A DNA stretch of 29,078 bases from a virus (IMGVR_UViG_3300042879_005260:93514-122591); one strand, 5' to 3'. Shown: positions 9,669 through 27,637, counted from the stretch's first letter. Numbers and translations are program-made. The notes: generated by a model from the sequence alone, not told the origin.

Positions 9669-9778
9669 ATATGTGATGGTGAAATAGCGACACAGCAACT
9701 GCCACGTGATTTGTGGAACAACAGTAAGACACGTAGTTGGTTAAATACCGAGCATCCTTCACCATCATTATTTATAAC
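9662..9778 (+). ncRNA. ORF-less cassette body; structured, possibly tRNA-derived
   Basis: About 21-nt terminal inverted repeat (GTTATAAATATGTGATGGTGAA / TTCACCATCATTATTTATAAC), internal stems, no ORF. Confidence 0.4.
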
Positions 9779-9900
9779 GGTTGGGTGTATATGTAGTGTG
9801 AGATTAGAACCACTACACTTGATTTAACCACAAATGTTTATTAGAAATAGAAATTTGAATATATCACTTAACCTCACATTACATATACACCTTGTTATGT
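9772..9900. repeat. attC-like site S2
   Basis: Arms GGTGTATATGTAGTGTGAG / CTCACATTACATATACACC; close homolog of S25. Confidence 0.85.
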
Positions 9901-9969
9901 GTAGTAATTTTGTGGGTGGGATTTGGGCTAAAATTTAATTTCTGAATATTTATATATAAAGATAAAACT

Positions 9970-10452
9970 ATGAGTAAAGAAATGAGAAACCATATAGATA
10001 AGTTTAAGAATTTTTTGTTGAAGGAACAAGATGAAAATTCAAATTTTGAGGATTTTGAAGGTGTTAATGAACATACTTTTATTCTTTACTTTGATGTAAG
10101 TGCTGGAAACATACCACAATCTGAATATGATGATGTTCTTCATCGTGCTTTGATTGAAGAATTTGATGGGTTTGGAAACACTTTTTACTTAAAAGATTAC
10201 TTTACTTCTACTAATCCAAGTTTTGAAGTTAAAATAATTAAAAACGAGTGGATTGGTAATAAAAACCACGTTTTTGATTATATAAAAACTACAATAAAGG
10301 TGGAGATACCAAAATATGAAGATTTTACTATTGAAGATGTTGAAGAAACTATCAAAAATAAGTTAGGTAGTTTTTATCATCGTTGGAATATATCATACGA
10401 TGAAACAGAAAAAGTTCATATATGGTTGAAGAAATTAGAAAGGGTCGGGTAA
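9970..10452 (+). CDS. Cassette gene with MSKEMR...LLKE leader
   Basis: 160 aa. Body termini GTTATGTGTAGTAATTTT / AAAATTATTACACATAAC. ATATTTATA at 9946. Confidence 0.8.
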   Translation: MSKEMRNHIDKFKNFLLKEQDENSNFEDFEGVNEHTFILYFDVSAGNIPQSEYDDVLHRALIEEFDGFGNTFYLKDYFTSTNPSFEVKIIKNEWIGNKNHVFDYIKTTIKVEIPKYEDFTIEDVEETIKNKLGSFYHRWNISYDETEKVHIWLKKLERVG

Positions 10453-10463
10453 AAAATTATTAC

Positions 10464-10548
10464 ACATAACGGTTACAAATATGAGAAGTAAATTTTATCT
10501 ATAAAAATTAGATAAATCAAAATTTATTTCTTATATTTGTTGTTATAT
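10464..10548. repeat. attC-like site S3
   Basis: CAAATATGAGAAGTAAATTTT / AAAATTTATTTCTTATATTTG; same family as S11 and S21. Confidence 0.85.
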
Positions 10549-10589
10549 TTAGTTTTGATTTTGTTTTACCTTATAAAAAAATAAATAAT

Positions 10590-10916
10590 ATGGAAAATAT
10601 AGTAAGTCACACTGTTCATTATCTTAAAAGAGTTGGTGAACCTAAAACAACAGATTTTAATTCTGAAATGAAAGAACAGAAATTAGAAATTGAAGCAAGA
10701 ATATCAATAAAACAGTCTTTAGAATTTTGTTCTTTTTTAAGCAGTATTGCAAATAACAAAGGGAGAAATGATGGAACTATTAACGGTAAAACTTTATCAA
10801 TAATTTCCAACTGGTATGATGTAAATGGTGGTTCAATTACAATAAACCATATCTATGGAAAAAGTGTAAGCAATAAAACAAGTTACTACACAATAACTTG
10901 GAGTAAAGAATTATAG
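10590..10916 (+). CDS. Cassette gene, hypothetical
   Basis: 108-aa ORF inside a cassette body. Confidence 0.7.
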   Translation: MENIVSHTVHYLKRVGEPKTTDFNSEMKEQKLEIEARISIKQSLEFCSFLSSIANNKGRNDGTINGKTLSIISNWYDVNGGSITINHIYGKSVSNKTSYYTITWSKEL

Positions 10917-10932
10917 TCAAATAATACGATAA

Positions 10933-11118
10933 ATGAAAAATATAGTATCAACATACGATAAGAGTAAAAATACAAGGGGAGGCACTCGGCAAGGGTCGGG
11001 TGCTAAACCTAAATACAATGAGCAAACTAAAACGGTTGCTTTTCGCTGTCCGCTGTCAAAAGTTGATGAACTGAAATTTATTGTCAAGTCTAAACTTTCG
11101 GAGTGGTCGGTAAAATAG
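10933..11118 (+). CDS. Small basic protein (RGGTRQGSGAKPK), possibly DNA-binding or RHH-like
   Basis: 61 aa; a Gly/Arg-rich N-terminus followed by a TVAFRCP strand and a helix. Confidence 0.55.
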   Translation: MKNIVSTYDKSKNTRGGTRQGSGAKPKYNEQTKTVAFRCPLSKVDELKFIVKSKLSEWSVK

Positions 11119-11119
11119 C

Positions 11120-11249
11120 AGCTAACGTCTGATGATAAACAATCGTTTTAATGTTGTTTATCGGTTGGGTGTATGAGAAGGTTTGCTTGTAGAAACTTTC
11201 AAATTACCACAACTATTGATAGCAAACTTTCTTATACACCTTGTTATAC
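11120..11249. repeat. attC-like site S4 (fusion of a truncated 54-bp-family site with an S14/S19-family site)
   Basis: ...ATGTTGTTTATC is joined directly to GGTTGGGTGTATGAGAAGG...; the ATTTGTT...AA stretch between them is missing. Confidence 0.75.
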
Positions 11250-11368
11250 ACAGTACGGTTTAATTAGGTAGAATGTTGATACGAAGAACGAATAAAAACT
11301 TTTTAAAAAAGTGAGGTGGGGAAATTTAATTTCTGAATATTTCTATATAAGATAAACTATTTATAAAT

Positions 11369-11938
11369 ATGAAACAAGATAGAAGAATACATAATTTCAT
11401 TAAAACTACTATAAGAGAGTTTGTAAATGAACAACCTAATAATAATGATATGGAAAATTTATTGAAAAAAGCGTTAGATGATGCTTTTATAAAACTTGAA
11501 AATCAAGTACCACAAACAAAAAAGAAAACTGAAACTATCAGTATTCAAGATGTAAAACCATCACAATTATTATCATTTATGAAATCAAATGATATACCAA
11601 ATGATGCTTATTTTACTGGGACAGATAATGGATATGATGGTTGGAATGATATTGTATTGGCTTGGGAAGTCGATGTACCAACCACAGAAAAGGAAAAGTT
11701 GGAATATAAAAATAGACGTTTCCACGATATTGCTTTTAAAAGTGTATATGATTTATTGACACCAAATGGTTATAAAAGAACTTCAGGACAGGATAGAGGT
11801 AGAATAAGTTATAGAAAATCAAGTTATGCTTCACATATTATTATGTTTGATAATAAAACGGTATATGAAATGTATATGGATAAAGATTTCAACTCGTTAT
11901 TAGAATATTATTCTATGTATTTTAAAAAAGAAGGGTAG
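11369..11938 (+). CDS. Cassette gene with IKTTIREFVNE leader
   Basis: 189 aa. The 5' UTR, leader and 3' UTR are shared with 23660..23950. Confidence 0.8.
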   Translation: MKQDRRIHNFIKTTIREFVNEQPNNNDMENLLKKALDDAFIKLENQVPQTKKKTETISIQDVKPSQLLSFMKSNDIPNDAYFTGTDNGYDGWNDIVLAWEVDVPTTEKEKLEYKNRRFHDIAFKSVYDLLTPNGYKRTSGQDRGRISYRKSSYASHIIMFDNKTVYEMYMDKDFNSLLEYYSMYFKKEG

Positions 11939-11996
11939 GGAAATTTTAAAAAGTTTTTCTCACTAAACTTAATTTGAAACGATAATGTAGTATTGT

Positions 11997-26261: not shown

Positions 26262-26293
26262 TTAGTATCAAAAATTTTATACAATTAAAAAAT

Positions 26294-26533
26294 ATGGAAA
26301 ATACATTTGAACCAAGAAAATCCATCTCTGAAAGATATAGTTTGGAGAATATGGCTAAACAACGAGGAGTGACCGTTGAAGAGTTTAAGATTGAAATAGA
26401 CAAACAACTCAAAATGAAACAAGATATTATTGATAAACAACTATTAAAAGGATGGACACAGGAACAAGCTGAAACTCACGCTTTAAGGTGTTTGTATATT
26501 GATGGATTTTCTGGACCAACATTCAAAGATTAA
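26294..26533 (+). CDS. Cassette gene, hypothetical
   Basis: 79 aa. Body termini are the same type as the 14147 cassette. Confidence 0.75.
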   Translation: MENTFEPRKSISERYSLENMAKQRGVTVEEFKIEIDKQLKMKQDIIDKQLLKGWTQEQAETHALRCLYIDGFSGPTFKD

Positions 26534-26558
26534 AAACTCATAAAATTTTTGATATTGA

Positions 26559-26689
26559 ATATAACGTTATTTGGATTTACGCAGGTGGGGCTAAATAGCA
26601 CAAAACTTTCAACCTGCACAAAAGATTATTAAAAGCACGTAAGATGGGTTTAAACGCTAACCCCCACTTGCGTAAAACCAATGTTAGCA
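26559..26689. repeat. attC-like site S22
   Basis: GGATTTACGCAGGTGGGG / CCCCACTTGCGTAAAACC. Contains an ATG (26644) for MGLNANPHLRKTN-V-SR*. Confidence 0.8.
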
Positions 26690-26700
26690 GATAGTTAAAA

Positions 26701-26856
26701 ATGGATTTGCACGTAATAAAATCAAGAACAGTATGCACCAACAGCGAAAGATTTTTGCTTATGGTTGGACATAGACATTGGAACTTTGGAATACAGATAC
26801 AAAATTGGGGCATACGTTTTATGTTGATATGGTGGCACGTCTGCATCCATTTTTAA
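26701..26856 (+). CDS. Cassette gene, 51 aa (absent from the ORF track)
   Basis: Translated by hand as MDLHVIKSRTVCTNSERF...WWHVCIHF*. About 23-nt body terminal inverted repeat. Confidence 0.55.
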   Translation: MDLHVIKSRTVCTNSERFLLMVGHRHWNFGIQIQNWGIRFMLIWWHVCIHF

Positions 26857-26860
26857 TTTC

Positions 26861-27005
26861 TGCTAACGATACTCAGATATATTTAGGTTTTCTGATATTT
26901 ATATATAAAATAAAATTATGAGCAAAGAAATGAGACAACACATAGACAAATTTAACAAGTTTAAACTAACTGAATCAGAAAACTTGAATATATCTGATGT
27001 TAGTG
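26861..27005. repeat. attC-like site S23 (loop encodes phage promoter plus leader peptide)
   Basis: CAGATATATTTAGGTTTTC / GAAAACTTGAATATATCTG arms enclose ATATTTATA (26895) and the ATG (26918). Confidence 0.85.
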
Positions 27006-27223
27006 ATAGTGAAACAAAAATTATTCAAATTAAAAATGAATATTCTGAAATAGATAATCAATTAAAGGAATTACATAAAAAACAAAATCAATTAAGTAAA
27101 TCATTGAGAGAAGTTTTGGATAATGAAACAGATATTAACAAAAGAAAGGAAATCATTGATTTTGTTTTTGCTGATAAGGTTGAAGAAGTACATGAATATT
27201 CATTTAGAAAAATGTATTTATAA
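26918..27223 (+). CDS. Leader-body fusion gene (MSKEMR...LTESENLNISD-V-SDSE)
   Basis: The GTT core at 26999 is in frame. The body has no Met until near its end. Confidence 0.8.
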   Translation: MSKEMRQHIDKFNKFKLTESENLNISDVSDSETKIIQIKNEYSEIDNQLKELHKKQNQLSKSLREVLDNETDINKRKEIIDFVFADKVEEVHEYSFRKMYL

Positions 27224-27238
27224 TTTTTGTTTAATTAT

Positions 27239-27359
27239 CACTAACGGTTTGCGTATATACGCAGTGCGAAACTGAACTAAATTTGGAACACAAAACTTAA
27301 TATTATGATAAAAACTTGGATTGAAAAACTGAAAGCATTGCGTATATACGCTGTTATGT
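27239..27359. repeat. attC-like site S24 (loop carries a start codon)
   Basis: GCGTATATACGCAGTGC / GCATTGCGTATATACGC. Confidence 0.85.
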
Positions 27360-27502
27360 GTGGTTTTATTACTCATAAGCAATACTTAGATGGTTATAAA
27401 AAATATGTAGAAAGCTCGACAGATGAAGAAGTAGGTACATTTGATTGGTTTGTTTACTATTGTAAGAAAAACAAAGAATTTAGAATCGAGCATCTTGCTT
27501 AA
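27305..27502 (+). CDS. Cassette gene starting inside the hairpin (LRIYA-V-MCG junction)
   Basis: The GTT core at 27353 is in frame. Confidence 0.7.
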   Translation: MIKTWIEKLKALRIYAVMCGFITHKQYLDGYKKYVESSTDEEVGTFDWFVYYCKKNKEFRIEHLA

Positions 27503-27508
27503 AATCAC

Positions 27509-27637
27509 ACATAACGGTTTGGTGTATATGTAGTATGAGATTTGAAACACTAAACTCCACTTAACCACAAATGTTGATTAGAAGTAGAAACTTGGATTCA
27601 CCACTGAACCTCACATTACATATACACCTTGTTATGT
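27509..27637. repeat. attC-like site S25
   Basis: Close homolog of S2. Confidence 0.85.

Follow-up and report, generated by a model that had tools for sequence, protein, structure and literature searches.

The final 29 kb of a 122.6-kb viral contig in IMG/VR (IMGVR_UViG_3300042879_005260, nucleotides 93514–122591; 29,078 nucleotides, GC ~28%, hereafter referred to as the window) contains 29 hairpins, each of which opens with AAC and closes with GTT, interspersed with small genes in two arrays that resemble the cassette arrays of integrons. The question raised by this locus is whether each hairpin moves together with the gene that precedes it, as in canonical integrons, or with the gene that follows it, as a first-pass annotation had proposed. 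Comparisons with related loci lead us to consider it probable that the arrays form an integron-like system of cassettes, carried by a phage, in which the polarity of the genes is reversed and the + strand would be exchanged at AA|C.

Almost all genes of the window are on the + strand (coordinates of the features are collected in Table 1). The hairpin sites are numbered S1 to S29, B denotes the body that follows the site of the same number, and L followed by a number denotes a related locus. The sites S1–S11 of the left array span 9580–14119. Its last body, B11, has matching terminal inverted repeats and ends with ...GAATATAAC at 14408, such that the array terminates at the AAC of an attI-like junction. 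A recombinase gene and ~7 kb of ordinary genes without hairpins separate the two arrays, and we found no hairpin site elsewhere on the 122.6-kb contig outside them. For comparison, homologues of the recombinase gave 80 viral and 80 metagenomic loci, 150 of which were non-redundant. For the strand statistics, sites were identified with a strand-symmetric detector, which replaced one that allowed wobble pairs on the scanned strand only and thereby biased the strand statistics. The symmetric detector returned 360 unique sites; overall, 360–554 unique sites were obtained from the related loci.

We examined where the segments shared between the 150 loci begin and end. After removal of duplicates, eight complete shared units extended from AAC to AAC and none from GTT to GTT. 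The right ends of the shared blocks were at AAC in 33 cases and at GTT in 3, and the left ends were at AAC in 22 cases and at GTT in 19. For instance, nucleotides 6607–6921 of L005 and 2131–2445 of L043 are 100% identical over 315 nt; this block begins with ATAAC and ends at the following AACG, its left flanks are unrelated, and the hairpins downstream of it belong to different families. A 515-nt block of L019 and L107 (99.6% identity) showed the same AAC-to-AAC behaviour, and the blocks of L082/L107, L111/L129, L083/L159, L002/L031, L009/L021 and S24+B24/L019 behaved like that of L005 and L043. The first-pass annotation had put the crossover at the left-hand AAC of a hairpin, and this agrees with the shared blocks, identical or nearly so in contexts that are otherwise unrelated, whose boundaries are one (T)AAC and the AAC that follows it. 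The 4–6 nt spacer after the AAC goes with the hairpin on its right, which places the exchange at the AAC itself. By these end counts, a body is almost never inherited with the hairpin after it and is inherited with the hairpin before it in about half of the cases. Most of the similarity between loci is confined to the hairpins, because the contents of the cassettes turn over so fast; phages whose recombinases are ~90% identical have almost no cassettes in common.

An association between hairpins and bodies was evident across the loci. Among 330 unique sites drawn at random from the 150 loci, the hairpin family was associated with the downstream flank (28 concordant pairs against 1.8 expected, p ≤ 0.002), with no association with the upstream flank (5 pairs against 2.7 expected). 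This answers, on many arrays, the proposal that hairpin families track the bodies behind them; the same permutation test restricted to the window was underpowered (1 concordant pair, p = 0.18). All four pairs cited for the window by the first-pass annotation are present: S4b and S14 precede bodies beginning with GTTA(T/C)ACACAGTAC and are followed at the next position by the unlike hairpins S5 and S15, S2 and S25 precede genes encoding MSKEMR, S6 and S18 precede GTTATAAGTATGTAAAATT, and S11 and S21 precede GTTATATTTAGTATC. The rule has exceptions within the window, in that S19 (of the S4b/S14 family), S3 (of the S11/S21 family), and S20 and S28 (both of the S6/S18 family) each precede a different body, and S12, a member of another hairpin family, precedes an S6-type body start. 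The paralogous cassettes S4b+B4 and S14+B14 have the hairpin, the leader and the 3′ end in common (in a self-BLAST comparison, 11159–11459 aligned with 23453–23744 at 86%, and 11928–12023 with 23928–24024). S28+B28 is 96% identical to L034 from its nucleotide 7914, and the match begins at the T of TAAC.

The arrangement of the genes was then compared with the two possible polarities. The longest open reading frame (ORF) is on the strand of the recombinase gene in 385 of 407 unique units. Of 380 units, 125 have an ORF whose start codon is within the upstream hairpin, and only 19 have one that runs past the downstream AAC; the stop codons are typically located 8–16 nt before this AAC. S24+B24 exemplifies this arrangement: its 65-aa ORF (27305–27502) begins in the hairpin loop, and the residues KALRIYAV are encoded by the 3′ arm. 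The cassette is 90% identical to nucleotides 8547–8827 of L019, with unrelated left flanks and different downstream hairpins, and the ORF is conserved, with five synonymous and two non-synonymous changes beyond codon 7. Two such hairpin-embedded N-termini are conserved between phages, with mostly synonymous change further along. Because these ORFs start inside the upstream hairpin, canonical polarity would mean that they are cut at every recombination. Canonical integron units consist of an ORF followed by attC, and their genes are on the top strand, read away from intI and are driven by the promoter Pc; the units here are instead composed of a hairpin followed by an ORF, and the genes point at the recombinase. 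Searches of Pfam and PHROGs with ten cassette proteins returned no family.

The recombinase matches the Pfam families Phage_integrase and SAM_4. Its best match in NCBIfam is XerA_Arch (184 bits, below the cut-off), IntI models match it in two pieces, also below the cut-off, and its closest solved relative is the archaeal Pyrococcus XerA. The alignment with VchIntIA (2a3v) skips IntI residues 182–258, where the phage protein has 29 residues, ~48 fewer. Thus, the enzyme lacks the additional (I2) domain that is specific to integron integrases. The attI-like junction ahead of its gene was found in 64 of 65 related loci, 35–65 nt before the start codon. The left half of this junction (..xTAAC) varies with the last cassette, and the right half (TAnnATATAT...) is conserved. 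This pattern is the hallmark of a primary insertion site whose crossover falls within the AAC or immediately behind it; on this comparative evidence, an attI-type site lies beside the recombinase gene, as it does in integrons. Three cassettes that are internal in L111, L002 and L082 abut the recombinase-proximal motif in L129, L031 and L095. In nearly all of the related loci, the hairpin array directly precedes the recombinase gene; sites occur at 4.0 per 3 kb upstream of this gene versus 0.33 downstream of it. Among the 65 loci with enough upstream sequence, 56 have at least two sites there, with the same array polarity and co-oriented with the recombinase gene; together with the left array of the window, they bear out the claim that all genes point toward the recombinase.

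The two strands of the hairpins differ in their folding properties. The 29 hairpins of the window contain 83 G.T pairs in the + folds and 19 in the − folds, and the inverted repeats at the body ends contain 379 Watson–Crick, 49 G.T and 6 A.C positions; the earlier observation that wobbles on the + strand dominate both arms and body ends was therefore accurate. When folded with DNA parameters, as had been suggested for all 29 sites, the + strand was better in 24 (mean difference −1.5 kcal/mol; Wilcoxon p = 0.0005). In the 360 unique sites, stem mismatches on the + strand were G.T at 578 positions and A.C at 57, and the + strand folded better in 314 sites and the − strand in 42. It had also been stated that extra bases are on the + strand, which is ill-posed in that form; what stands is that, in 348 of the 360 sites, the spacer on the 5′ arm of the + strand is 3–4 bases longer than that on the 3′ arm. 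Counting the unpaired bases of each arm in minimum-free-energy folds was abandoned, since branched loops confounded the counts. Because the GG after the AAC faces the TT before the GTT in the base of the site, the base helix on the + strand closes as TAACG/TGTTA, followed by a 3-nt bulge beside AACG, and that on the − strand remains open. The AAC:GTT helix is closed on the + strand in 21 of the 29 window sites and in 138 of 309 sites from other loci, the corresponding numbers for the − strand being 0 of 29 and 3 of 309.

The strand cleaved by tyrosine recombinases is the one whose 5′-to-3′ direction leads from the binding arm into the central region. Combined with a crossover at the left AAC, this polarity would make the + strand the one that is exchanged, and we infer that the folded + (sense) strand is the substrate, as the first-pass annotation had suggested. 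The G.T bias of ~10:1 and the closure of the AAC:GTT helix almost exclusively on the + strand are consistent with this reading. In canonical integrons, the recombined bottom strand is likewise the G:T-rich (1.24 vs 0.39 G:T mispairs) and more stable one, and it is cleaved in 5′-AAC-3′ (PMC5027507). Thus, the sites share with attC both an imperfect, variable hairpin with AAC and GTT ends and a putative recombined strand that is more stable and rich in G:T pairs.

The bodies themselves carry terminal inverted repeats of 15–26 nt with G.T wobbles at recurrent positions (GTTATATTTAG.. with ..TTGAATATAAC); for example, 28657–28682 pairs with 28920–28945. Pairing at 15 or more of 20 positions was observed in 138 of 395 bodies, as compared with 17 of 601 flank pairs of one hairpin. 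These repeats were considered as a test between the two cassette models and were set aside as uninformative, because either hairpin would gain an extended stem in the circle.

The comparisons establish the boundaries of the unit, the attI junction, the direction of the genes and the strand asymmetry of folding. In the mechanism that we propose, the mobile unit begins with the C of an AAC and finishes with the AA of the following one. In the sense of the gene, a hairpin (C, the 4–6 nt spacer, 5′ arm, loop, 3′ arm and GTT) comes first, and a short leader leads from it to the ORF, behind which a 3′ inverted repeat closes the unit with ..TAA. The Xer-like recombinase would exchange the + strand at AA|C. 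Exchange between two hairpins would lead to excision and shuffling, and exchange between a cassette and the attI-like sequence ..TAA|C-TAnnATATAT before the recombinase gene would lead to insertion. New cassettes would then enter beside the recombinase, with every gene pointing toward it. The heterologous spacers and the strand-asymmetric folding suggest that only one strand is exchanged and that the junction is resolved by replication. Expression signals would be part of each cassette. When the locus is viewed on the − strand, its platform has the canonical integron layout of a divergent recombinase, attI, and body plus site; only the ORFs are flipped.

Several observations weigh against this proposal. 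About half of the left block ends are at GTT, and for this reason the same leader or body can follow different hairpin families, as it does in L003, L006 and L043. L030 and L031 have swapped hairpin plus leader, with a break inside the ORF start. In addition, S1 at the distal end of the left array is a chimera: its first 23 nt correspond to an S2/S12-type 5′ arm, and the remainder, loop and 3′ arm, matches at 97% identity a hairpin of a different family (CAAATAT type), of which L005 has an intact copy (4258–4346). Thus, the linkage between hairpin and gene is not absolute, and some part must also be played by homologous recombination or by minor events that involve the other strand; occasional use of the other strand is known for some attC sites (PMC5027507). 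The unpaired bases are on the cleaved arm, whereas canonical attC sites have their extrahelical bases on the arm opposite the cleaved 5′-AAC-3′ (PMC5027507). By this criterion alone the − strand looks canonical, its extra spacer bases being opposite its own 5′ AAC, and one might then envisage conventional cassettes of a body plus its downstream hairpin, with the − strand folded, the crossover at G|TT on the right of the hairpin, and the association with the upstream hairpin a coincidence among a few hairpin families. A few blocks do end at GTT (the 3 right ends; L043/L062). However, such cassettes should have produced GTT-to-GTT units, of which there are none against eight from AAC to AAC; a third of the ORFs would be severed; the attI-like junction has its conserved half on the right of the AAC; and the − strand, which bears the A.C mismatches, closes the AAC:GTT helix in no window site. 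The comparisons have already largely refuted this explanation, which we would give hardly any chance of being correct.

The other two explanations dispense with one part or another of the proposed system. Promoter-early stem-loop (PeSL) shuffling in T4-type phages needs no dedicated recombinase (PMC2839356, PMC4122927), and the carrier here is presumed to be T4-like. The hairpin and leader modules might thus be homology patches for general recombination, with no site-specific movement and with another job for the recombinase. Off-site breakpoints, such as that inside the ORF start of L030/L031, the S1 chimera and the leader-only blocks beginning at GTT, would be expected in this case. Homology alone, however, does not predict the strong asymmetry between right and left block ends, and it would find nothing to pair at the sharp AAC breaks between 100% identical blocks and non-homologous flanks. 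Moreover, the arrays are linked to the recombinase gene in 56 of 65 loci with a fixed polarity and a conserved junction motif, and AAC/GTT ends and stem covariation are kept across unrelated stem sequences. We therefore regard general recombination as a quite unlikely explanation of the arrays as a whole. A different possibility is that the crossover at the left AAC takes place in duplex DNA, with a core of TAAC, spacer and TATAT box, and that the hairpins and their G.T bias serve RNA (stability of the mRNA 5′ end, processing or translation). Since the better-folding strand is the sense strand, the bias could instead serve G.U pairing in mRNA, which explains it equally well; the attI partner is without a hairpin, integron integrases handle folded DNA by means of an I2 domain (PMC4792948) that is missing from this recombinase, and the body ends, which pair too, would close the mRNA. 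On the other hand, the spacers adjacent to the AAC differ between partners (GGTTG, GATAC, GTCCG and others), such that two-strand exchange would give mismatches that single-strand exchange tolerates. The AAC:GTT helix, to which a recombinase would bind, is precisely where the bulge and the G.T pairs are located, and XerCD acts on the folded DNA of CTX phage without an I2 domain (discussed in PMC4792948). On balance, we consider duplex exchange improbable and favour exchange of the folded + strand.

The right array shows no recombinase at its downstream end within the contig, and scans for promoters gave no motif, which also count against the proposed system. Scored without a model for this host or phage, sigma-70-like sites numbered 130, as compared with 128.8 in shuffled sequences; the Bacteroidota −7 motif TAnnTTTG had a fixed place in only 36 of 547 sites; and the T4 late motif TATAAATA, with one mismatch allowed, was at the hairpin/body junction in only 29 of 597. 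That each cassette might be self-expressing is suggested by the geometry of the arrays. The hairpins were also considered as intrinsic terminators, and this was rejected because they have no T run.

Table 1. Positions of the arrays, the recombinase gene and individual hairpin sites and cassettes in the window
Feature	Position	Strand	Remarks
Left cassette array, S1–S11 and bodies	9580–14408	+	AAC/GTT ends checked; genes all +
S1, chimeric site	9580–9664	+	distal end of left array; folding energy −2.3 kcal/mol, folding lost
S4, composite site	11124–11245	+	short hairpin S4a (11124–11165) joined to S4b
S4b+B4 cassette	11159–12003	+	paralogue of S14+B14 (23454–24004)
S7 hairpin	12724–12848		of the S10 kind
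S10 hairpin	13734–13857	+	gene start in loop; ORF 13780–14031
attI-like junction	14404–14442	+	cassette-derived ..ATAAC, then platform TAGATTATATATGTAATAACCC...; 35 nt before recombinase ATG
Xer-like tyrosine recombinase gene	14443–15249	+	268 aa; just downstream of left array, co-oriented with cassette genes
Right cassette array, S12–S29	22717–28991	+	polarity as left array; continues off contig end
S23 hairpin	26865–27001		of the S10 kind
S24+B24 cassette	27243–27515	+	example cassette, AAC to AAC
S26 hairpin	28005–28126		of the S10 kind
S27 hairpin	28230–28357		of the S10 kind
S28+B28 cassette	28611–28948	+	common to related phage locus L034

The span originally given, 9772–27637, omits S1 as well as S26–S29, which are part of the same arrays. 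In the composite site S4, the short hairpin S4a is cut off after ...GTTTAT and fused at C-GGTTGGG to S4b, a junction that would fit an aberrant, off-target exchange of TAT|C with TAA|C. A conserved module of leader and N-terminus (..AATTTCTGA(A)TATTTATATATAAA..ATG-SKEMR / EHEMR..) stands at the head of proteins whose C-terminal parts are unrelated. This module is located after the hairpin in B2, B4, B14 and B25 and inside the hairpin loop in S23 and S27 (positions 9930–10010, 11322–11360, 23612–23690, 26881–26966, 27645–27746 and 28254–28321). S23 and S27 have arms similar to the terminal repeats that bodies carry (ATATTTAG / TTGAATAT). The product of the B18 ORF (25078–25274) begins with MKNLINKDG... 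A scan of the window against Rfam returned no family.

The hairpin-free block between the arrays includes a gene for a carbon–nitrogen hydrolase (21189–21998, − strand), which is the sole sizeable minus-strand gene of the array region. It also includes a metallophosphoesterase gene (18287–18991) and a gene at 19900–20214, which are downstream of the recombinase gene here and upstream of the array in several relatives (region 15269–22716 of the window; relatives L030, L136 and L147). Because genes of this region precede the array in those relatives, the window may comprise two tandem array modules, with the second recombinase past the end of the contig. At the start of the window, 371–1462, there are three tandem paralogous genes (371–806 resembles 810–1246 at 84%, with more copies to 1462).

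Parts of the region 9500–15300 are contained in 24 lake or freshwater metagenome runs from 23 studies, four of which have at least half of the sampled words. Logan contigs from four lake metagenomes, compared with 9079–29078, break at the repeated hairpins; the shorter side of each joint measures only 18–32 nt, and unknown letters frequently intervene, such that crossovers are not placeable. These public contigs are too fragmented to show circles or indels and serve only to record presence in lake-water runs.

How does this system relate to known ones? Like integrons, it has arrays of small single-gene cassettes separated by imperfect, variable hairpins with AAC...GTT ends, and a tyrosine recombinase of the Xer/IntI group beside a primary insertion site. 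The crossover would likewise be in 5′-AAC-3′ on the G:T-rich, better-folding strand, with the recombinase divergent by the polarity of the sites (PMC5027507). Unlike in integrons, the phage genes are on the putative recombined strand with the site at their 5′ end, all of them point at the recombinase, and a platform promoter cannot drive them. The phage recombinase is without the I2 insertion, the 3-nt bulge and asymmetric spacer are on the cleaved arm rather than opposite it, the cassettes have terminal inverted repeats of 15–26 nt, and the carrier is a phage. Because the I2 domain, the position of the extrahelical bases and the ORF-then-site order all differ, the system, although it would function like an integron, should not be classed as one. 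Chromosomal integrons do contain reverse-oriented cassettes, such as those for toxin–antitoxin pairs, in which the ORF is antisense to the usual polarity and has its own promoter. Exceptions to the usual polarity of cassettes are also mentioned in PMC5027507. In contrast to such cassettes, which are a minority in canonical arrays, reversed polarity is the rule here (385 of 407 units). A survey of phage genomes with the canonical models of IntegronFinder and HattCI reported 3 integrons and 17 small CALINs (PMC9892861), cassette-like arrays that, like those described here, are in phage genomes, virulent phages included. Its text does not mention Xer, and the terms ‘Bacteroid’, ‘Flavobacter’ and ‘T4-like’ are absent from it. 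Our literature searches brought up no account of arrays in which the sites precede the genes.

The PeSL elements of T4-type phages resemble the present sites in being stem-loop modules before small ORFans in hyperplastic regions; they mark the boundaries of indels and replacements, and circles have been proposed as intermediates (PMC2839356, PMC4122927). The same placement was found here in a carrier presumed to be T4-like. However, PeSL crossovers are spread over the AT-rich part of the element and are attributed to homologous recombination with no recombinase identified, whereas here the AAC is the point of sharp breaks, the ends of the sites are of the integron type, and the arrays are linked to a dedicated recombinase with an attI-like site. 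PeSL modules also contain an early promoter of the host sigma type and a Shine–Dalgarno sequence; the scans described above gave no early-promoter motif. The integration of CTX phage by XerCD is similar in that an Xer-type enzyme without I2 uses a hairpin of phage DNA, which imitates a duplex site whose central region is unpaired, and one strand is exchanged (PMC4792948). It differs in that CTX uses the host XerCD and a single dif site for integration of its whole genome, as opposed to the phage-encoded enzyme and many-cassette arrays of the present system.

We see an even chance that lytic T4-like phages of freshwater Bacteroidota possess a working single-strand cassette recombination system that is run by an I2-less Xer-like enzyme with mirrored polarity, and that is either an independent invention or a relative of the integron ancestor. 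If this is true, it would supply the ‘targeted recombinase’ raised by the PeSL authors, and both the chicken-and-egg problem posed by I2 and the extrahelical bases and the proposed viral origin of integrons (PMC4792948) could be tested on it. In integrons, a single platform promoter is useful because the recombined strand is, as a rule, antisense to the genes, and this rule has been treated as essential to the system (PMC5027507). A widespread family of arrays would break this rule, yet keep the crossover at AAC, the position of attI and the G:T-marked strand. The polarity of the sites and that of the genes would therefore be separable, and cassette systems could work without a platform promoter. 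An enzyme without I2 may handle hairpin sites, which bears on the evolution of IntI from Xer-like ancestors (PMC4792948). The system proposed here would offer a concrete mechanism for the fast turnover of ORFans in the hyperplastic regions of large phages, which in T4-type phages has so far been ascribed to homology-driven PeSL exchange. With the AAC-to-AAC rule, such cassettes could be delimited and counted in viral metagenomes.

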